A DNA stretch of 63,295 bases, counting the filler, from Stramenopiles sp. TOSAG23-3 (lineage: Eukaryota): NCBI GenBank assembly GCA_900128585.1. It is 9 parts of 9 records of this genome, joined end to end, with 100 filler letters (N's around TTAATTAATTAA, not from the genome) between each part and the next. Parts side by side here need not be neighbours in the genome. Positions count along the whole stretch, not along the records: positions 1 to 6,952 come from LT643223.1; 8 more parts are not named here. One strand, given 5' to 3'. Both the position numbers and the translations under genes were made by a program. Every line of letters starts with the position of its first letter. Position 1 is the stretch's first letter. Shown piece by piece: positions 1 to 61,345 of the stretch. A model generated the notes under the pieces. It saw nothing but the letters and a program-made list of their open reading frames with translations. It was not told the DNA's origin and did not search any database.

Positions 1-2
1 CG

Positions 3-523
3 ATGGGTTATTCTGGCTCGGCTTTTAGGCGTCGCCCTTCAGTACTACTACGGATGCACTGGAATGCTCGCAGGGCCCAAGTAAACAGGACCCATAGAAG
101 CGGAACCCAAGGAAACAGGGCCCAAGAATACAGTCCCGTTGTCGTTGAAACGCCGAGCTCGTCGCAATCGCAGCCGGCAATTAGCACAGCACACACCAGG
201 AACGCTGCATCCGTGACTGAAGAATCCAAGACAGAGCAACCGCGGCAAGTACACGCTTGCGTATACTGTGGAAAATCATATATCCAGGTAAAGCGCGTGC
301 GCATCCTACCCGCGCGCATTCCGTTTTGTGGACATTTTGTTCCATGCACACGAGTCTAACGCGGCAAACGCAGCTGTGCAATCTAAGATTGCATATCTAA
401 ACACATTGCAAATACATTGGTAAAAGACCATTCCAATGCCACGTTTGCGGTTGGTCCTATTCACAACTATCATATCTCAAGCGACACATTTCGGAGCACC
501 ACGTGTCGGATGCACCAGCGTGA
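3..523 (+). CDS. C2H2 zinc-finger protein, 5' partial, spliced join(<3..287,374..523), in-frame TAA at 398-400
   Basis: HACVYCGKSYIQ, then intron 288-373 (GTAAAG donor, CTAAC branch, GCAG acceptor), then LCNLRLHI*THCKYIGKRPFQCHVCGWSYSQLSYLKRHISEHH. This gives two C2H2 fingers with a TGEKP-like linker. Confidence 0.75.
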
Positions 524-879
524 CCTACAGCACTTTTTCTCCCGCCGACATAATCACACGCACAAGTATTGGTGCTACGCGGCATGGAGACCTAAACTCG
601 TCGTTTATTCAACGGATTGACGGCAGTTCACAAGGACAATTTTGAGTTGTTTAGCATTAGCACAGCAAGTTGACGGGAAAAAACACCTCCTAGAATTGTA
701 AGAATTGTAAGTGTACAGGCTCAAGTGTTTTTGCACTGGCAAGAGACACTAGGAATTTGAATGCGACAGAACGAAGACACATGTTTAGACATCTGCAATT
801 AGATTTCCGTTTTCATTTCGTTACGTGCAACTTCTGCTGTTGCATGCGAAAACAGGATCTGATATTGGTGTGCATAAAA

Positions 880-1620
880 CTAAGGACGCTTACCCACGCA
901 GAAGTGCTTGAGCCTATGCAGCATGTGGTCGTCAAAGTTGACAATCTCTTTGAGGTCCCTTTCGAATGCACGCAAGGATCGACCTTTTGCAAGGCGGAGC
1001 TGGTTGGTCTCGTCCCGAGCAGATCTGTGGAATCGAATGTGTACGGCTTCGTTGGTGAGGTACTCTGATATTGTACCCGTCCCGTCACCATAATTGGCCC
1101 ATCGAGCTGCGTCCTTGCTCTCATCGCCAAGGATTGTGGCGTCGGCACCGGCCTCAACAAGTACACGAACAATGAACATCTTGTTATTGAAAGCGGCAAA
1201 CATAAGCGGGGTGTTCTTCGACTTGTTGGCAATATTTACATCAGCCTTGCTTCTGATGAACAGCTCCACGATGTCCGTCTTGCCAAAGGCAGACGCCATG
1301 TGCAGCGAAGTATTCCCAGTGTCGTCCTGCCAATTGATTGGTGCCCTCCCGCGGATAAGTCTCTTGACTTTTGCTGTGTCTCCATTACGAGTGGCAACAA
1401 TGACTTTCTGGAGGATTGATGCAAAGTGCGGCAAAACGTTCTATCAGCAAAGGTAAATAAAGTCGTGTCGTGCCATGCCTCTCACCCTTCCCAAACGGTG
1501 GATCTCCTTTTCTGAAAAGCGCTGCACACAATGCTCAAGTGTCGAGGTTGTCAAGTCGCTCTTTCCATCGCTTTGTTCATGAAGAGGACTGTCACATTGA
1601 CGAGAAGGCTGCAAGCTCAT
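880..1620 (-). CDS. Ankyrin-repeat protein with uncharacterised C-terminal module; join(1486..1620,880..1407)
   Basis: ANK motifs GNTSLHMASAFGKTDIVELFI and KNTPLMFAAFNNKMFIVRVLVEAGAD. A phase-0 intron at 1408-1485 (GTGAGA...CTCCAG) joins EIHRLGR to KVIVATRNGD. Alternative start at 1635. Possible further donor (G/GTAAGC) near 893. Confidence 0.85.
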
Positions 1621-1721
1621 GGCTCCCTGCAGCATACTTCATAACAGCTCGCAAAGCCGAATATTTAAATAAAAGATCGGGCAAACACGGCGCTTTGGGA
1701 GCGCAGTTGGCCAGAAAAGGC

Positions 1722-2828
1722 ATGTCGCAAGGGGATGCTATGGCCACTAGGCAGCTTAAGCTAGAGCTAAAGGGGCACAGCAACTGGATCTACTCGGTCT
1801 CGTTTTCCCCAAACGGCCAGCACGTGGCAAGCGGGAGCTGGGATAGGACGGTTCGGATCTGGGATGCAGCCACGGGGCAGTTCAAGCAAGAGCTCAAGGG
1901 TCACACGCGTGAAGTCACATCAGTCGTGTTTTCTCCCAATGGCACGCACGTGATGAGCGGAAGCTGGGACAGGACGGTTCGAATCTGGAATACAGCCACG
2001 GGTCAGGTCCAGCGAGAGCTCAAAGGACATCTTGGAGGTATCTGCTCAGTCACGTTTTCCCCAGACGGCCAGAGCGTGGCAAGCGGGGGCGTGGAAAGGA
2101 CGGTCCGGATCTGGGACGCAGCCACGGGGCAGCTCCAGCGAGAGCTCAAAAGGTCTGGCAGAGCTGTCTACTCGGTCGCATACAGCCCGGACGGCACGCG
2201 CATGGTTATTGGATACGACGATAAGAGGGTGCAGATCTGGGATGTAGCCACTGGACAGCTCCAGCAACAACTCAAGGGACACCGCGGAAGTGTCCTCTCG
2301 GTCGCATTTTCCCCCGACGGCGCGCGCGTGGCAAGCGGAAGCGCCGATTACACGATCCGGATCTGGGATGCAGCCGCTGGACAACTTCAGCGAGAGCTCA
2401 AGGGGCATTCTAAGTGTGTCAATTCGGTCGCGTTTTCTCCGAACGGTCAGCGCGTGGCGAGTGGGAGCGACGACAGGTCTGTCCGGATATGGGACGCAGC
2501 CACGGGAAAGCTCCAACGAGAGCTCAAGGGGCACCAACAAAAGGTAACCTCGGTTGTGTTTAGCCCAGGTGGAACGCGCGTGGCGAGTGGGAGCTATGAT
2601 AACACGGTCCGGATATGGGATGCACATAGTCGATTCCATTCCACTACTCGCAATGAAAGTGGTCAATTGCACAAGCTTCAGGGCCGCGCTACGCGTGCTT
2701 TCACTCGCGATCTCATACAAATTACTGGTTTTGACGACCACATGATGCATCGGTTCATGAGCCTATGCGTCGGGACAAACTACGCGAGCGCAAGCCAATT
2801 GTATCTAGCGACGCTTGCCTATGCGTAA
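1722..2828 (+). CDS. Seven-bladed WD40-repeat protein with uncharacterised C-terminal module
   Basis: Seven 42-aa repeats LKGH..V.SV.FSP.G..VASGS.D.TVRIWDAATG. First plausible ATG at 1722 (or 1740). Confidence 0.9.
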   Translation: MSQGDAMATRQLKLELKGHSNWIYSVSFSPNGQHVASGSWDRTVRIWDAATGQFKQELKGHTREVTSVVFSPNGTHVMSGSWDRTVRIWNTATGQVQRELKGHLGGICSVTFSPDGQSVASGGVERTVRIWDAATGQLQRELKRSGRAVYSVAYSPDGTRMVIGYDDKRVQIWDVATGQLQQQLKGHRGSVLSVAFSPDGARVASGSADYTIRIWDAAAGQLQRELKGHSKCVNSVAFSPNGQRVASGSDDRSVRIWDAATGKLQRELKGHQQKVTSVVFSPGGTRVASGSYDNTVRIWDAHSRFHSTTRNESGQLHKLQGRATRAFTRDLIQITGFDDHMMHRFMSLCVGTNYASASQLYLATLAYA

Positions 2829-3005
2829 ATGCTCGAGCCGATGTAGCATATGATTGATGAAAACGCCATTTTGCTTGAGATCACGCTCAATTGCGGGCAG
2901 AGACCACACTTTGACGCGGTGCAGCTGGCTGCTTACATTTTGATCAAATAGTGTGGTTCAGATACTCTGTGACGTCGTGGTATCACCATCACCAATTGCC
3001 ACACA

Positions 3006-4617
3006 CTACGCATCGCGCAGAGCGGCCCCGCGTGTCTCTATCGGTAGTTTCAATGCCGAGAGCGCAGCAGCGCAGCACATAACTCCCATAATCAACTGCG
3101 CAGCCCATGGGTACCCATCCGTGACGAGATTGTGAGCGACAAAGGGGCAGAGCATGCCGCCAACGCGCGCCCACCCATTCGAGTATCCAAATGCAGTGGT
3201 CCGAAAAGTGGTCGGGTAGACCTCAGGTGTGTAGACGTATGTCACAGCAAACGACCCCGTGACCGCAACACGCGCGAGAAAGAGAAACGCAAGCACTGCC
3301 CCTGCTGTGGTGCCGACCGGAATGAGAATGAGCAGGAAGATCGCTCCCGCTGCGAAGAGTGTGGATTGGAGAGGGCGCCTGCCGATGCGATGGATGACAA
3401 ACATCGGAATGAGAATCCCCGGGATTTCGCCCAAAGTCGACACAAAAATGTCGATAAAGTCCTGGTCCGTCCAAATGCTATCCTTGGTGCACGGATCTGT
3501 GTCCTTGTACATGATTGTCGTCGTCATCACGACAACGCCGTAGTAGCAGAACGCGTTTGCGAACCACAGAACCCAGAGCCATCCGGTCAGCTCGCGCCAT
3601 TCGCGACTGAAAATACGACCCAAAACCTCAAGCGCTCCAACATCAGCGGCGGGTTCTTCCTTGAGCACGAGCCGGCCCGCGGGCAAACGCCTGCCGTTTC
3701 CCTCTGCAATACCTTTCAACACACGCTGCGCGCCGTCCAAGTCGCCTCCTATTGCCGACCACCGGGGGCTTTCGGGTAGCACCCACAGGCCTAACAGCAC
3801 ACCAACGAGGGGAATCATTGAGAGGCCAACCAGCCAGCGCCACCCGAGTCTCGGGAGCACAGCCCATGCCAGTCCCGCCAGCAAGATTGCACCCGCGCCC
3901 CAGCAGAGCTGCAGTCCAATCCCCCAGAAGCCGCGGGACCGCTTGGGAATGAACTCCATGAAAAACGAAAAAGCGACGCTGAACCCGCCCAAGCCGAAAC
4001 CCACCATGCACCTGCAGAAGCACAGCATCCCATAGTTGACGCTGAACGTCGTGATGAGAGAGAATGATATCGTGAATAGCGTGTCGTAGAGCAGGGTGTA
4101 CCAACGGCCCTGGACGTCGGCGAGGAAGCCCCAAAACCAGTTGCCTATCATCATGCCTAGAAACACCACTGTGGTTAGGAAAGCGACTTCTGTATTGCTT
4201 AGATTCCACCCGCATTTGACCGAAGGGCCCAGAAATGATAACAAAAGCATCTCCATCGAGTCAGCCATGAGAAAGAACCCGAGCACTGCCACGTACTTGA
4301 ACTGTGACGGACCCATGCCAGCAGCCGTAATGGCTTGGTCCATGGTGAAAGTCTTACCGACGCTGTGTGTATGCGTGCAGGGGGGGGCGACGGTGCATGA
4401 GTATGGGCGCGGAGCTGCCCTGCGAGCGCGCGCAACCCCAGTACGATCTATGAAAAGCCAAATCGCGACCCGAAAAGAGGCACACAGCGGGTGCACGCGC
4501 ACCCAAAGAACCACAGGGCCAATTTTGAAATCAGGATCCATGGGCGCCGTAGCAAGCGCGCATCACTGACAGTCCCTCCTTTTCATCCTCATTCCCGCCC
4601 AGTTCGAGCCCGCTCAT
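3006..4617 (-). CDS. MFS transporter, SVOP/organic cation type; probable join(4571..4617,3006..4362)
   Basis: About 12 TM helices; motifs WGFLADVQGR, LPESPRW, YTPEVYPTTFR. Predicted phase-2 intron 4363-4570 (GTCAGT...ACAG) gives the N-terminus MSGLELGGNEDEKEGLVGKTFTMDQ. Confidence 0.85.
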
Positions 4618-4853
4618 GGCGCGCTCCCTGAGATGGCGACGCGATGCGACCCCTGGGACCACTCCGAAAATCAAAATCACGAACCCGGGGATTCCCGGGG
4701 ATTCCTTTATTGGAGCAAATTAAACCACAGTACTTTACTAACAACTCCCACATCTCAAACCCTAGCCCCGCACGTTAGCACGCTCCGTGGGCCACACGCA
4801 CTACGTGTCAGAAGCCAAACATAAGATATAGGCACACCACGTATCCATAGAAC

Positions 4854-5969
4854 ATGCTTGGGCAGTGGTCAAACCTTTCCGAGCCTGTCGAGAAAATGCT
4901 TCCTGCGGTTCGACACACCATGGCCTCTCTACGGCCACCACCTCGACCTAAACGAGCAAGAACAGTCGGCGCAGAGTCGTCTGTGCCGCGGCAGCGCTCG
5001 GGAAAGGACATGACCAAGGGCCCCAAACCCAAGCGAAAACCCAAACAAACGCATCGGCCAAAATCAAAGTCAGGCTCGAAATTGACACCGAAACCCAACT
5101 CCTCCGACGACCCCCTAAGCCGCCTCGCCCGAACGCTCAACGGGCGAAAGAACTCCCTCGGAATAACCCTACGCGATGTGCTGTCCCCATCAGCGCTTGG
5201 CGCAGTTCTGACGGAGCAAGACCTGCAACGTGTGATAGTGGGCGGCAACGACCCTATTGGTGCGTATCTTCCCGAGGGTCAGCGGTCTGTTTCCGCGTTT
5301 CACACCATCCTGAGGTCCGTGCCATTTCTAGAATGTTTAGACGTGTTTCAAGGGCATATTCTAAACGCAGCGCTGGATGGCAACGAGGTGCTTGAGGCCC
5401 AGGTTCGGACATATGGCGCTGTGTCTACACCGATACACGCCACGCCCGGTGCCGGGGCCACCTCGACCTATCTCACAACCCATGGCCTGGCGACGCTTAC
5501 AGTCCCTAAGCTTCGCCGTCTCGCTTCGAGGCTTAAGCTCAAGTATAGAACGTGCAACAAGAAAGAAATCATCGAACTGATTACTGCGCGCGTTGAGCAA
5601 GAGTTCGGAAGTGTCGACGCTGGTACTGCTGCGCATCCAGCGACTAGCAGCAACACGCCGGCGCGCACACAGAAACCAAAAAGGCGAAAGCGCAAGAAAC
5701 GGTCATTGCGAGGCAATCGTACTGCCTTTAATTACTTTCAAACCGAAGAACGCGCCCGCATTTTGACTACGTTGGGCCCTGCAGCTACAGATGGCATCCG
5801 ATCGGAAATCAACGACCAGATACAGCGTATGATTGGCATGCGGTGGCGGACCCTCGGGCCCGATAAACGGAGCCGTTACGTTAATATGGCCGCAGAATAC
5901 AATGCTGCGAAGGCTGATGCCGCGGGCGGTAAAGAGGCGACAAAGAAAATAAAAAGTGCTGCATGTTGA
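4854..5969 (+). CDS. HMG-box protein with Rpn13-C/DEUBAD-like and SAP/Rho-N-like segments
   Basis: HMG box RTAFNYFQTEER...IGMRWRTLGPDKRSRYVNMA; helix-extension-helix LATLTVPKLRRLASRLKL...KKEIIELI; basic NLS-like runs. Start codon uncertain. Confidence 0.7.
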   Translation: MLGQWSNLSEPVEKMLPAVRHTMASLRPPPRPKRARTVGAESSVPRQRSGKDMTKGPKPKRKPKQTHRPKSKSGSKLTPKPNSSDDPLSRLARTLNGRKNSLGITLRDVLSPSALGAVLTEQDLQRVIVGGNDPIGAYLPEGQRSVSAFHTILRSVPFLECLDVFQGHILNAALDGNEVLEAQVRTYGAVSTPIHATPGAGATSTYLTTHGLATLTVPKLRRLASRLKLKYRTCNKKEIIELITARVEQEFGSVDAGTAAHPATSSNTPARTQKPKRRKRKKRSLRGNRTAFNYFQTEERARILTTLGPAATDGIRSEINDQIQRMIGMRWRTLGPDKRSRYVNMAAEYNAAKADAAGGKEATKKIKSAAC

Positions 5970-6181
5970 CCGACTGACCGACTGAGCCTTCCACGCATGC
6001 TGTGAAATACACGTGGTTTGTGTCTGTGCAGCAGCGTCAAAGCGTGCAAATATCTGCACATATTTGATTGATATATTTATCCTCTTATTTGGTTGCATGC
6101 ATCTAAACTGTTGCAGTTTCGCGTGTTTGGCAAGTATGGCATTTAATTAGACCTAGAATTCTGTATTCCTGATCGTACGAC

Positions 6182-6952
6182 TTATTGCGCAGCGCTGCAC
6201 TCTCCAAAACCATGTCGTTCAAAGCAAACAAAGCAGCGTGGGTTTCTGGTTGCGGCCGAACCAGTCGAGGTCGCACCCCTCGCCTCCACCGCAGGACTCC
6301 GCCGCGAAGTCCTGCCCTTCTTTTGCCCCCCTATCGACACCTGAGCCAATAGCTGCTGTATTTTCTCAGCCGATGTCGTAGTGACCGCAGCGACCCCTTG
6401 CTGCTTCTGTTTCGCCTTTTTCTTTCGATTTCGGCGTCGCTTGCTCTTTGACAGGGCTGCTGCTCCCCCCCCACCAGATGGTCTTTGCTGGCGCGAAGAG
6501 CCCAGCACCTGCGCGCTTCTTCCAGGTTTCTTTGTCGGTTCCGGCTTACATTTAGCCTCCTCTCGCGCGCTCAGGGCATCCGCCATTTCAATCTCCTCCA
6601 TCGCTTCTTTCGACGCCTCTGCCACGCGCAGCGCCGGCGCGGTGTTCCATTTCCCATCGTCGCCCAACATCATCCACGTTCCCGGCTTTACCATGCCTGG
6701 ATCTACGACAGACCCACCCGCTGCGAAGCGCGGGCCAGCCTTGAGTAAAAGCACCCAGGCGCACTTGGGTGGGAACCATCGAATATGCGCGTCGGCATTC
6801 TCTGTGTGGAAGTAACCAGGACGGCCCTGCCAAAAACAACGTGCAGCGTACACCCCATTTGCGCCCGCCCCCTCTCCTTCCGCACCAGAGACCTCCACGC
6901 CAGCGGCTGGGGGCAGCTCCGGCTCGTTGTCGGCCGCTGCTCCCGGCACCGC
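6182..6952 (-). CDS. Hypothetical protein, 5' truncated, C-terminal CxxC-x3-H-x4-C zinc-knuckle-like motif
   Basis: GC-rich 255-aa ORF running off the contig end; ends in RCFVCFERHGFGEC. Confidence 0.55.
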   Translation of the reverse strand, partial: AVPGAAADNEPELPPAAGVEVSGAEGEGAGANGVYAARCFWQGRPGYFHTENADAHIRWFPPKCAWVLLLKAGPRFAAGGSVVDPGMVKPGTWMMLGDDGKWNTAPALRVAEASKEAMEEIEMADALSAREEAKCKPEPTKKPGRSAQVLGSSRQQRPSGGGGAAALSKSKRRRNRKKKAKQKQQGVAAVTTTSAEKIQQLLAQVSIGGQKKGRTSRRSPAVEARGATSTGSAATRNPRCFVCFERHGFGECSAAQ

Positions 6953-7052
6953 NNNNNNNNNNNNNNNNNNNNNNNNNNNNNNNNNNNNNNNNNNNNTTAA
7001 TTAATTAANNNNNNNNNNNNNNNNNNNNNNNNNNNNNNNNNNNNNNNNNNNN
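6953..7052. other. Artificial contig linker (also 14004-14103, 21054-21153, 28104-28203, 35149-35248, 42188-42287, 49227-49326, 56262-56361)
   Basis: N44-TTAATTAATTAA-N44 with stops in all six frames; contig lengths fall from 6952 to 6934. Confidence 0.99.
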
Positions 7053-28073: not shown

Positions 28074-28865
28074 TCGACTCTTTCTTTCTTTCGACTCTTT
28101 CTTNNNNNNNNNNNNNNNNNNNNNNNNNNNNNNNNNNNNNNNNNNNNTTAATTAATTAANNNNNNNNNNNNNNNNNNNNNNNNNNNNNNNNNNNNNNNNN
28201 NNNGAAGGAGAATGAAAGAAAGAAGGAAGGAGAAAGAAAGAAAGAAGGAAGGAGAATGAAAGAAAGAAGGAAGGAGAAAGAAAGAAAGAAGGAAGGAGAA
28301 AGAAAGAAAGAAGGAAGGAGAAAGAAAGAAAGAAGGAAGGAGAAAGAAAGAGTCGAAAGAAGGAAGGAGAAAGAAAGAAGAAATAATTAAATAATTATAT
28401 TGTCTATACTATTACCTGTATAATAATAATAATAATAGATTGATTTTATTTTTTTTTGAATTTACTTTTATTTTTTTGGAAGAAAGAAAGTACCGGTACC
28501 CTTTTCCTGTCTGTTCTCTGTACTCTGTTCCTTGGTATTATTATTATTATGAGATCTGTGATTGATGATCGATGATCGATCACAGATGGAAGATATAAAT
28601 AGTAGATGAATTATTTTATGAGAAGAAACGAATTTAATAAATGTTTGTATAGTAGTCGTCTATGTATATATATAAATGAACATTCACCAAAACAAAAGTA
28701 TATATGCGTTTAGAGGAACAGCACGGTTTACTCCCATTTACGGTTTTTATTACAAAAAGTAGAAGTGGTGTTATAGACAACTGACTATACAACACTAGAT
28801 ACGAACGAACGAACGAACGGACGGACGGTTACGTAGAGAGAGAGAGAGAGAAAAGAAGAATTATT

Positions 28866-34838: not shown

Positions 34839-35289
34839 GTTGAATCGACCCTTTCTCTTCCAAAAGGGTATGTTTTTCAAAAACTATATTCTTTGCGTTT
34901 CGTTCAGTCTCCGCCTCTTTTTCTTTGATTTTCAAATTATTTAGTATTATTTTTTTATTTTTTTATTAACTAATGATATCTTCGCTTATTACTACTTATT
35001 TAATCGTGGTTTATTATAGCATTTTTAAAACAACAATTTTGTTTTGTTTTGTTTTGTTCATTCTAGACCTATATTATTAAATTGTATTTTTTTTGGCGCG
35101 AGTCCTTCTTCTTTCTTTTATCTTCTTCTTTCTTTTTCTTCTTTTTTTNNNNNNNNNNNNNNNNNNNNNNNNNNNNNNNNNNNNNNNNNNNNTTAATTAA
35201 TTAANNNNNNNNNNNNNNNNNNNNNNNNNNNNNNNNNNNNNNNNNNNNCATCGACATGGTTTGGAATGGAGCGTCGGCTGCGGTTTACC

Positions 35290-42135: not shown

Positions 42136-42287
42136 CGTCTCATTGATGGTTGTCAATCATCATTTTTTTTTATAGTGGAGTCCATGANNNNNNNNNNNNN
42201 NNNNNNNNNNNNNNNNNNNNNNNNNNNNNNNTTAATTAATTAANNNNNNNNNNNNNNNNNNNNNNNNNNNNNNNNNNNNNNNNNNNN

Positions 42288-49226: not shown

Positions 49227-50139
49227 NNNNNNNNNNNNNNNNNNNNNNNNNNNNNNNNNNNNNNNNNNNNTTAATTAATTAANNNNNNNNNNNNNNNNNN
49301 NNNNNNNNNNNNNNNNNNNNNNNNNNAATTGGAATCTTGACCAGAACTTGGGGAGGATCTGCAATAGGAGGAGACATTGTTCTTGAACTGACACCTTCTT
49401 TTTTTTCTTTAATTTTTTGGTTTTTTTTTAATTACTATAAAATAACAGCCATTTTTTCTTGTTTTATCTACAGGTACTTCCGCTGAGTCTAACCGAGTGA
49501 TTCACCTGCCGGAGTTTCCAAAACTTGGACCGAATTTCAGGGACGCTGATCAATCTATCCCCCCAACATCGCAAGAGTCGAACAGATCCAGGCAATCAAA
49601 AAACAATTCTAGCCGCTGTTTGATTTTTGGTAATAAAGGGGAGATTGATTCTTCAAGTGACTCTGGTGGGTTTGGCAAAGAAGTAGTCTACTCGCAAGAG
49701 TCTCCAAAGAAAGATGAAACTTTCAGGGACTTTGACTGGGAGAAGAATCGATTTGTTGAATTCAGATCACCTCTATATCAAAAACAAAAACATTATATCA
49801 CTTGGTAAAAGTTCATTCGAATATAACACTCGACACACAACGAAAAAAGAAAATAATTGTGATATTAAAGAGAGCGTCTTAAATCACACTATTTATAATT
49901 TGTTTTTTAGAGTAATTAAAATTTAGCTTCCTCATATTACCGCGAAAATGAATCTACTCAGACTCGGCTTTTGCCCATTATTAGAGGTTTACATTCCTTC
50001 ATGTACTGCACGAATAAGTTCAAAATTCTTTAAAAAAGACTTCTTGGCATTTTTATTCTCGTAAGATTCTTAAGTTTTACGAATTCTTATTCATAAGATA
50101 ACTTTTTTAAAATTTATAAAACCCTAAAATTCTTAATTT

Positions 50140-56261: not shown

Positions 56262-56419
56262 NNNNNNNNNNNNNNNNNNNNNNNNNNNNNNNNNNNNNNN
56301 NNNNNTTAATTAATTAANNNNNNNNNNNNNNNNNNNNNNNNNNNNNNNNNNNNNNNNNNNNCTTCAGCATGACCTTCTCGTGCTGCAGTGCGCGCACGCG
56401 CTTCATCGCCTCGATGTTC

Positions 56420-59627: not shown

Positions 59628-60920
59628 TCACATACGCTCCACACTACGCCCCAGAGGGTCTTCGATTTGCCATCGGTGTTCGCCAATATCAAGATTTTCC
59701 CGGGATGCCCCTTGCTGAAAGAATTTGCTGGCTGTATTCCCGTTTTGGTCCTTCAAACGCAGTTCGTCACGGTTCATTAATGAACTCAAGAAAGTCATGA
59801 TATCTCTGTGGCGGTAAAATGCGGCGCACATAAGCGGCGTAACGCCCCGGTTTGTTCGTCCAGCGATCCATTCGCGAACGACACCGTTTCCGTTTTTATT
59901 CATCTTTTTATTGCTCAAAAGCAAATTTCCATACGTGCTCGTTCCACCGCTCCCAGCCAGTTTTAACCTGCCGTCCTTGAGAAGCTTTTTCACCAGGTAC
60001 TTTACAACGTCCAAGTGTCCACGGTAGCAAGAAGCATGAAGCGGCATTACCCCATACTCATCCTTTCCCATAAGCTTTGACCCTCCTACTTCTACGAGCA
60101 ACGCGATGGTTTCGGAAGAACAATTCTCGTAGCATGCTAAATGCAGCGGCGTTGTCTTTTCGTAATCCACCGCGTTCGCACTTGCCCCATGCTTTAGTAA
60201 TATCTCTACAATAGCTTTGTCCCCAAAATATGATGCAATGTGTATCGGCTGCCTGCCGTTGATGTCTTTGCAATCGACACGAGCCCCCAAAGTCAACAAA
60301 AACTGTACACATACAAAGTACCCTTTATAGGTCGCACGGTGCAACAGCGTACGACCATCCCCTACTTTAGCAACTATGGGACGGTTAATAATGTCATTCC
60401 CATTTCGTCGAAGATAGAGGGAGGCCATTCGACGATCTTCGGCAGCTATTTCTCCTTTAGTTTGGCATTTCTTAATCAATGGCCACAGGTCATCATGAAG
60501 CGTGTTTTCTTTCTTTGCCTGGTCATTCAGGTAATCTTTATGCTTTTCTATGTTCAGTAATTCTACAGTTTTTTCAAACAAAACGTGGTTTTGCTTCAAC
60601 CTATCGTCTAAATCGTGCTTCCCAGTTGATCGTAGCAAGTAAGCAACCCTCTTTTTGCTCTTCTTGAAGTGCTCTGCGTTTGCTGCGATAAAATTGTATT
60701 TTTCCTGCAGTGCCTTGGCTCGCCACTTTGCTTGCCTCACACGAAAAATGGATTGCAGCAGGATTGCAGCTTCTTCTTCTTCCCGTTCTCGCTTTTTGCG
60801 ATAAAGCTCAACTCTGCGTTTTCTTTTTAATTCTAGCTTCTCTTCTTGGGTAAGATCGTTCTTTGTGACCAACTCTGCATTGGCTTTCTTTATTTGTGCT
60901 GCAATCAAATTAAGACTCAT
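59628..60920 (-). CDS. IQ-motif and ankyrin-repeat protein
   Basis: IQ-like AAILLQSIFRVRQAK; about five ANK repeats (GRTLLHRA, GRQPIHIA, TTPLHLA, GVMPLHAS, GVTPLMCA). Confidence 0.85.
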   Translation of the reverse strand: MSLNLIAAQIKKANAELVTKNDLTQEEKLELKRKRRVELYRKKREREEEEAAILLQSIFRVRQAKWRAKALQEKYNFIAANAEHFKKSKKRVAYLLRSTGKHDLDDRLKQNHVLFEKTVELLNIEKHKDYLNDQAKKENTLHDDLWPLIKKCQTKGEIAAEDRRMASLYLRRNGNDIINRPIVAKVGDGRTLLHRATYKGYFVCVQFLLTLGARVDCKDINGRQPIHIASYFGDKAIVEILLKHGASANAVDYEKTTPLHLACYENCSSETIALLVEVGGSKLMGKDEYGVMPLHASCYRGHLDVVKYLVKKLLKDGRLKLAGSGGTSTYGNLLLSNKKMNKNGNGVVREWIAGRTNRGVTPLMCAAFYRHRDIMTFLSSLMNRDELRLKDQNGNTASKFFQQGASRENLDIGEHRWQIEDPLGRSVERM

Positions 60921-61345
60921 TTTTCACCTCCCCACCACGAACGATTACAGGCACCCTTCACTTTCGACCCAAGAACTATTTAGTATAATACGACAATTTA
61001 TCAGATGATGATGCCACTTAAGGACAAGACTTTTGAACAAAAAATATCTGGTTAATGGCGGAACACACAAAGAAAATTTAATCCATTTTCTTTCTCATAT
61101 CAGCTTGAGTAAATCATCATCTTTGACGTTTTCATCATACACTTCCCATTGATTACATGAATTCCGGAGAAGAATGACTTCTATTTATATATTCTTCATT
61201 GATTGAACAACAACAACAACAATGCCAAATTATTTTTTTTCATTGAAGAGCACTGTTGTTCCTTGTTTCCGTTATAAAGTAAATTTCGCCTTTATATTTC
61301 TACGTTTTTTCATAAAGAATATTCAAAATTTAGATTTTATATTAA

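Follow-up and report, generated by a model that had tools for sequence, protein, structure and literature searches.

A conserved C-terminal module on ankyrin-repeat and WD40 proteins marks an undescribed gene family of uncultured marine eukaryotes

Among the SOCS-box adaptors of animals, ASB proteins combine ankyrin (ANK) repeats with a SOCS box and WSB proteins combine WD40 repeats with a SOCS box. Fungal NLR-like (STAND) proteins carry ANK, WD40 or TPR arrays as sensors. A further group, the ANK-PRANC and truncated F-box proteins, occurs in poxviruses, Rickettsiales and some wasps, in poxviruses and beyond (PMC4353913, PMC4148323, PMC6161386). PMC4353913 describes poxviral F-boxes that are C-terminal and truncated to two helices, and an F-box in CP77 that is effectively a single helix, the first, and still binds Skp1; according to the same paper, the contacts between F-box and Skp1 come mostly from the first helix and the loop preceding it. 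Here we describe a module of about 50 amino acids that stands at the C-terminus of an ANK-repeat protein and of a WD40 protein encoded head to head in Stramenopiles sp. TOSAG23-3 (assembly GCA_900128585.1). The two genes lie at positions 1-6952 (LT643223.1) of a stretch of 63,295 nucleotides, spacers included, that was analysed as a whole and is called the window below. The evidence shows that the 50-residue segment is a genuine, undescribed domain at the extreme C-terminus of a gene family of marine uncultured eukaryotes.

The two module copies occupy 892-1041 on the minus strand (copy 1, ANK-linked) and 2625-2774 on the plus strand (copy 2, WD40-linked). Direct translation reproduced both of the 50-residue ends given in a preliminary description of the window, together with their gap-free identity of 27/50. 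None of 100,000 shuffles reached 27 identities (maximum 13), and tblastn within the window paired the copies with an E value of 6e-17. At the nucleotide level the copies agree at 89 of 150 positions, divided as 29, 36 and 24 of 50 over codon positions 1, 2 and 3, and this ranking of second over first over third position is the signature of coding sequence. Nonsynonymous divergence (dN) between them is 0.39 and synonymous divergence (dS) is saturated (undefined by NG86; LWL85 dS 1.27, ratio 0.32). The duplication is old, and the sequence has been held under constraint. A hidden Markov model (HMM) of the family matched copy 1 over 886-1074 with 99.7 bits and copy 2 over 2604-2777 with 83.8 bits; the closest relative of copy 2 is the WD40 protein P0061 (66% identity; P numbers denote proteins returned by the searches described below).

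Pfam assigned the hosts of both copies as the preliminary description had done. The main exon of the ANK gene (883-1407, minus strand, within an open reading frame (ORF) at 880-1434) encodes about three ankyrin repeats with caps, followed by the module (Ank 2e-16, Ank_2 4.7e-16), and the WD40 gene (1722-2828, plus strand, a single exon) encodes seven WD40 repeats, the module and a tail of 17 amino acids (WD40 2.8e-96 in 7 stretches). In each case the module follows the repeat array closely, starting directly after the C-terminal capping helix in the ANK protein (about 220 aa) and 2 residues past the last 'RIWDA' in the WD40 protein (368 aa). Copy 1 ends its last helix with ...FCVG, and the ANK ORF runs three codons (KRP) beyond the module end quoted earlier, to a TAG at 880-882. 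The WD40 gene ends with a TAA at 2826-2828.

A third copy, which the preliminary description had missed, lies at 2808-2957 on the minus strand (tblastn E 6.2e-8; HMM 2811-2942, 40.0 bits); beyond these three, the family HMM found nothing above -2.7 bits over the whole 63 kb. It is in the frame of an MFS transporter ORF, just 3' of the stop of that ORF (3006-3008) and with a further stop at 2958-2960 between the two, and it and the 3' end of the WD40 gene overlap tail-to-tail. The copy has lost conserved residues and gained stops: the family-invariant G31 and the conserved R32 and R35 have become V, W and P, and the RFH.SAR segment of about 8 residues is gone. On the 5' side of the third copy, 'GDGD.TT.S' resembles the 'GDGTGTIS' found ahead of the ANK-linked module. 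P0006 and P0007 match the third copy best, at 67-69% identity; both come from other assemblies, and the other copies in the window match it less well. Our reading of this sequence is that it represents the decayed tail of a third, different paralogue of the ANK type, and the tail-to-tail overlap may explain why the window WD40 protein has its atypical 17-residue tail. The ANK gene, the WD40 gene and the relic thus place copies of three different subtypes within 2.1 kb. Because the ANK and WD40 modules belong to different major groups and the relic to a third subtype, the local cluster did not arise by recent tandem duplication.

A profile of the three window copies was searched against 1,835,955,588 representative proteins and returned 34 matches at E<=1e-3, of which 20 reached E<=1e-10. 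We accepted 32 of these as true; the other two, P0027 and P0034, were low-complexity repeat proteins and were rejected. A second search with a 29-sequence profile (A3) against proteins of 133-2000 aa gave 40 matches, 26 of them new, for 58 representative relatives in all. Every one of these comes from metagenome or assembly sources (ENA, Logan, NCBI assemblies), none is named, and pairwise identities within the family fall as low as about 30%. An ANK-repeat scaffold precedes the module in 43/58 and a WD40 scaffold in 9/58 (eight recognised by Pfam and P0031 by eye), while 6/58 have no recognised domain; five of these are fragments of 70-98 aa and the sixth is P0070. Pfam detected no domain type other than Ank or WD40, and no NACHT or NB-ARC, in the window proteins, 40 listed relatives and 17 that were scanned. 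The proposal of a lineage-specific family that carries a new terminal domain on both repeat types is therefore upheld, and the contrary case, a module found in two genes only and evolving with a dN/dS near 1, is at odds with both the 58 relatives and the LWL85 ratio of 0.32.

P0070 (158 aa) carries a type B module (defined below) near-identical to that of the ANK protein P0068, placed after an N-terminal part of 100 residues in which Pfam recognises neither ANK repeats nor any other domain; this protein may represent a third scaffold or a gene-calling artefact. Within the window itself, the ninth contig has an ankyrin-repeat ORF without the module (59631-60923, minus strand; Ank_2 3.8e-29), and the module family therefore excludes some ANK genes of this assembly. 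No relative was found in JGI metagenome contigs with the sub-alignments A4 and A5, and none in IMG/VR viral contigs with the queries P0028, A5 and A4. Against GTDB prokaryote genomes, A4 retrieved nothing and A5 retrieved two loci; with family-HMM scores no higher than -2.7 bits, both are regarded as chance matches. Full-text searches of the literature, covering main articles, turned up no description of the module.

When cluster members are counted, 69 proteins match the family HMM, and in 63 of them the module ends 4 residues or fewer from the C-terminus; the six exceptions have 7-52 further residues. The usual protein end is F-C-[TV]-G-K-R followed by the stop, and most members finish in a short basic tail of this kind. 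Because this end is conserved in the family and falls where a splice donor had been suggested for the ANK gene (893, G|GTAAG), the donor is unnecessary and we do not retain it. Stop-codon reassignment behind the conserved stop after GKR was considered and rejected, as ORFs of up to 979 codons are open under the standard code. In one of the six exceptions, the WD40-linked P0066 (394 aa), what looks like an in-frame insertion places about 45 extra residues inside the last helix, between 'FDDHMM' and 'MLRRLVQLCT'. These could be an unspliced in-frame intron, in which case some members would have an intron inside the module.

Three residues of the module are invariant (G31, A36 and R39), and R14, F15, L26, R32, R35, D40 and L41 are at least 90% conserved, giving the core signature RF...L....GR..RA..RDL. 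The last helix takes two main forms. Type A reads 'FDDHMLHRL..FC.GKR', with the subtypes 'VFVNHML' and 'FDRDMMGLL', and type B reads 'LP.GPLSIIKEFATGKR'; both window genes, ANK and WD40, have the type A-style 'FDDHML..L..F'. Modules contain 6-14 K+R against 4-10 D+E. AlphaFold2, given the module with 29 sequences, returned a model with pLDDT 78.9 and pTM 0.44, in which a beta-bridge between residues 20 and 26 is followed by two helices (32-44 and 49-60). In a model of the full ANK ORF the same elements appeared with pLDDT 61-73, compared with about 96 for the ANK domain, and the lower values for the module fit a separately mobile end. In the model, R32, R35 and R39 are predicted to lie on one face of helix 1 as an arginine ladder. 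Residue spacing, rather than coordinates, suggests that A36 and L41 form a packing face together with the hydrophobic residues of helix 2, which presents a broad hydrophobic face (F47, M51, L52, L55, F58 and C59).

Neither the sequence nor the predicted fold of the module resembled a described family. The two window modules matched 0 Pfam families at E<=1, and 29 modules searched against Pfam-A at E<=10 gave five unrelated single matches, the best with E 0.053. None of the SOCS_box, F-box, F-box-like and PRANC profiles was matched by the 29 modules at E<=10, which agrees with the earlier statement that the segment was not recognisable as SOCS, F-box or PRANC. There was likewise no match in NCBIfam or PHROGs, or among PDB sequences, where the best alignment (E 0.057) covered 21 residues of a globin. 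A two-helix model is too small for structural searches to be decisive; within that limit, Foldseek against the PDB, a check proposed at the outset, gave 0 matches at E<=0.001 (best E 7.0), BFVD gave 0 fold matches at E<=0.001, and among 48,161 chains compared with VIA-align the best Z was 2.9, with none at Z>=5 and no F-box protein among the 32 matches listed. A feature search of the ESM Atlas (best score 0.77) was uninformative. No helix-turn-helix (HTH) family matched significantly: single members of the 29 hit RecX_HTH2 (E 0.053), sigma-70 (E 0.0085) and IS6 transposase (E 0.081).

Set beside the described systems, the module shares with SOCS-box adaptors the form of a small helical box that ends ANK and WD40 proteins alike, and a last helix in which a hydrophobic residue is followed after three residues by Cys or Ala. 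It differs from them in having no SOCS_box match and no room for a Cul box, in having as its core an arginine ladder on the preceding helix, and in occurring in marine eukaryotes rather than animals. With the ANK-PRANC and F-box proteins it shares multi-copy ANK hosts and a short C-terminal helical box, reducible in those proteins to one or two helices, and its type B helix starts with 'LP'. Unlike theirs, the module has neither a PRANC or F-box match nor a fold match in PDB or BFVD, its 'LP' helix comes last rather than first, it has WD40 hosts as well, and it is found neither in the IMG/VR viral contigs nor in the GTDB prokaryote genomes. Fungal NLR-like proteins resemble the family in using ANK and WD40 as alternatives, and here too the WD40 repeats are highly alike one another. 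However, the present proteins have no NACHT, NB-ARC or N-terminal effector and are small, at most 653 aa in the relatives; a reading as NLR-like proteins or paired immune sensors, raised in the preliminary description, is not sustained by members that combine the repeats with no such domain.

To relate scaffold and module, we used a maximum-likelihood tree of 56 modules and 53 columns, in which many forks are unresolved. The tree left out the cluster members P0035-P0045, the protein P0001, and the partial or interrupted sequences P0018, P0066 and P0071. Eight of the nine WD40-linked modules form one starred clade (97/80), nested among ANK-linked modules and with P0015 and P0019 as its successive neighbours; within it the window WD40 module pairs with P0061 (99/90). 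The ninth, that of P0031, lies apart on a long branch adjacent to the type B clade. Mapping the scaffold onto the tree requires 2 changes, and the starred branches force only 1. Because the WD40-linked modules amount to one clade plus one outlier, scaffold swapping has been rare. The earlier idea of interchangeable scaffolds thus stands in so far as the module occurs on both ANK and WD40 proteins, but the picture that fits best is a coherent lineage, made up mainly of short ANK-plus-module proteins, whose ANK domain gave way to a seven-bladed WD40 propeller once or twice; the module does not resemble a box that has been shuffled at will. Among 35 ANK members (595 pairs), mean pairwise identity was 0.498 for the ANK part and 0.505 for the module. 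We also asked whether the module segment 'SGQL...KGR' derives from the WD40 inter-blade 'TGQLQRELKGH', using a position-specific scoring matrix built from ANK-linked modules. One repeat scored 4.6 and the others -11 or less, against shuffle levels of 2.9 (95%) and 11.7 (99.9%), and we rejected this origin as unconvincing.

The reading that we favour, with a little better than an even chance in our judgement, is that the module is autonomous and acts as a docking end, coupling the repeat domain to a shared ligand. Its autonomy is suggested by the occurrence of the same module on two unrelated folds. The repeat domain would bind one thing, and the module, by way of the face that bears its conserved arginines and of its hydrophobic last helix, would hold the protein to the shared ligand, which may be a protein adaptor, a nucleic acid or another acidic surface. 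By analogy, the short terminal boxes of other repeat-scaffold adaptors work in this way. Several findings weigh against such a role. The module has no likeness in sequence or fold to any known docking box. Its placement confidence in the full-length model is modest, and the window WD40 copy is without the basic tail common in its relatives. The ANK part is as conserved as the module, so that the proteins look like co-evolving units rather than a constant box on a variable scaffold, and only two scaffold types, with one or two swaps between them, have been seen.

Alternatively, the module might be a nucleic-acid- or chromatin-binding tail, a basic HTH-like mini-domain that would tether nuclear ANK and WD40 proteins to DNA or RNA. 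We consider this unlikely, and rank it first among the alternatives. Arginines 14, 32, 35 and 39 are invariant or nearly so and the modules are net positive, and the pattern 'GRS.RAI.RDL + turn + ...HRL' resembles the helix 2-turn-helix 3 part of transposase and resolvase HTH domains. By our reading of their sequences, the full-length ANK members P0004, P0008, P0042, P0029 and P0033 also start with 'RKRG...K.PR.DP', which is like a nuclear localisation signal. The WD40 members, however, have no such N-terminus, and the models show two helices after a beta-bridge where HTH domains have a three-helix bundle. The weak matches to sigma-70, IS6 transposase and RecX (E 0.0085-0.08) involve one member each of the 29, no HTH family is significant, and the best structural matches to HTH proteins (Z 2.0-2.4) are at noise level.

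Next comes the possibility that the module is a substrate-receptor box of cullin-RING ubiquitin ligases, with the last helix seated on Skp1 or Elongin C and the ANK or WD40 domain presenting substrates; by analogy with known adaptors this is conceivable, and again we think it improbable. The architecture parallels that of the ASB and WSB SOCS-box proteins and of ANK-PRANC proteins. The 'LP' and spaced hydrophobic residues of the type B helix (LP.GP.SIIKEF) are loosely like the start of an F-box, and types A and B both show a hydrophobic residue, three residues and then C or A (L55 and C59), loosely like the core of a BC-box. Tested directly, L55 and C59 fit the L...C core, and the residue before is R or K. 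A reduced C-terminal F-box can still bind Skp1, according to PMC4353913. Against this reading, besides the missing profile and fold matches, the candidate helix is always the last and not the first. With only 2-4 residues left after the Cys in 63/69 members, no Cul box is possible, nor is there a place for F-box helices 2-3. The most conserved residues are the arginines of the preceding helix, which are not known to be a feature of those boxes.

A more detailed version of this idea is slightly less probable, and we put it forward, by analogy, as an improbable one. The module would be a novel one-helix, F-box- or BC-box-like adaptor-docking box of cullin-RING ligases in marine protists, buttressed by the arginine-ladder helix; the small ANK and WD40 proteins would be substrate-receptor families and the divergent pair a co-regulated receptor pair. 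Should the module prove to be a docking box, it would constitute a new modular-adaptor family in abundant uncultured marine eukaryotes and, after the animal ASB and WSB proteins, a second independent case of one short terminal box on both ANK and WD40 scaffolds, and would bear on the repeated invention of adaptor systems. Even without a function, the module is a cleanly alignable domain of some 50 aa, represented by 58 proteins and recognisable by a sharp signature, and so makes a depositable family that can be used in annotating marine eukaryotic metagenome-assembled genomes.

We give considerably less weight to a pairing or oligomerisation domain, in which the two-helix hairpins of different members, for example those of the divergent ANK and WD40 proteins, would form a helical bundle. 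Two module-bearing genes are divergently arranged with about 100 bp between them, three subtypes occur within 2.1 kb, and helix 2 has the broad hydrophobic face described above. A like-charged arginine face nevertheless dominates the conservation, and this disfavours self-association unless an acidic bridge is present. A complex prediction for the ANK and WD40 modules scored 0.02 against a mark of 0.34, which is no evidence on binding in either direction. Fortuitous similarity, or a local segment or repeat element that was duplicated recently and has no protein function, an alternative raised in the preliminary description and invited by three copies in 2.1 kb of which one is decayed, is refuted by the 0/100,000 shuffles at the observed identity, the saturated dS with dN 0.39, the 58 representative relatives with identities down to about 30% and the different subtypes of the three window copies.

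The divergent arrangement of the two genes was largely as previously described. The start codons at 1620 (minus strand) and 1722 (plus strand) are about 100 bp apart, and the 101-bp spacer between them (1621-1721), a putative bidirectional promoter, contains the AT-rich box ATTTAAATAAAA at 1663-1674; to this we add a second in-frame ATG at 1635. The N-terminus 'MS..A..QL' of the WD40 protein matches those of the WD40-linked relatives P0009, P0010 and P0053. For the ANK gene, the putative exon 1 is at 1486-1620 on the minus strand (ATG 1620, alternative ATG 1635), and the ORF to which it belongs (1444-1635) is in frame with the ORF at 880-1434. Its end, '...EIHRLGR', resembles the '...EINKLGRVR' and 'NKLGRVR' that stand 5' of the ANK repeats in P0008 and P0003, which supports its inclusion in the gene. 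Between it and the main exon we read from the sequence a candidate in-frame intron of 78 nt (1408-1485, minus strand, GTGAGA...CCAG) that contains TGA TAG at 1441-1446. Use of the acceptor at 1408 would remove 'ILQ' from the cap motif 'I.Q[KE]L' that relatives conserve. An alternative acceptor directly after the TAG at 1441 would keep the cap motif and leave an intron of only 45 nt.

The window consists of nine separate contigs, each about 6.95 kb long and arranged from the longest to the shortest, with spacers of the form N44-TTAATTAATTAA-N44 at 6953-7052, 14004-14103, 21054-21153, 28104-28203, 35149-35248, 42188-42287, 49227-49326 and 56262-56361. The genomic context usable for the ANK and WD40 genes is therefore limited to 1-6952. 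GC content ranges from 0.39 to 0.55 between contigs (0.546 in the first), and the contigs may thus stem from more than one organism. The first contig is eukaryotic in style. In addition to the gene pair it encodes an MFS/sugar transporter (3006-4541, minus strand; Sugar_tr 4.2e-33), an ORF with a weak HMG-box match and, at about 246-520 on the plus strand, a C2H2 zinc-finger gene with a GT..AG intron (288-373, plus strand). In the spliced zinc-finger gene, finger 1 has perfect C-x2-C-x12-H-x3-H spacing, yet an in-frame TAA (398-400) lies between its two histidines. The gene may be a pseudogene, or the assembly or the splice model may be wrong; reassignment of the stop codon is an unlikely cause because ORFs of up to 979 codons are open under the standard code.

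Parts of the first contig are present in public runs of 12 studies, all labelled as marine, seawater or plankton metagenomes, and half or more of its sampled words occur in runs of three of these, one of which may be the sample that the contig came from. Over 2726-3341 a DNA contig of run X1 is identical to the window, so in the X1 assembly, too, the 3' ends of the WD40 and MFS genes and the relic between them are joined in this way. For RNA we compared Logan contigs of three metatranscriptome runs. No contig in these runs covered 233-1624, which includes the ANK gene; contigs from two studies covered the MFS gene over 3055-4362 (minus strand) and the region of an unannotated ORF at the contig end (6155-6952). 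The 5' end of the MFS RNA contig falls at 4362 or 4343, suggesting that translation starts at an internal Met near 4343 and not at 4541. Short contigs of marine metagenomes and metatranscriptomes aligned in very large numbers to the WD40 units (1785-2550, plus strand), at 90-95% likeness and with many repeat-to-repeat joints, and the summed depth reached 22,300 in one run (2089-2320). Such repeats therefore form a very large and abundant family in these samples. Because the RNA matches to the WD40 units come from this large repeat family, they are uninformative on the WD40 gene described here.

The remaining contigs encode CFAP96-like, kinesin, bestrophin, TNFR-type cysteine-rich and BspA-type LRR proteins. 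Microsatellites of the (AGAAAG)n / (CTTTCT)n type stand at contig ends (14104-14130, 21030-21053, 28080-28230 and 35120-35148) and are probably points of assembly breakage.

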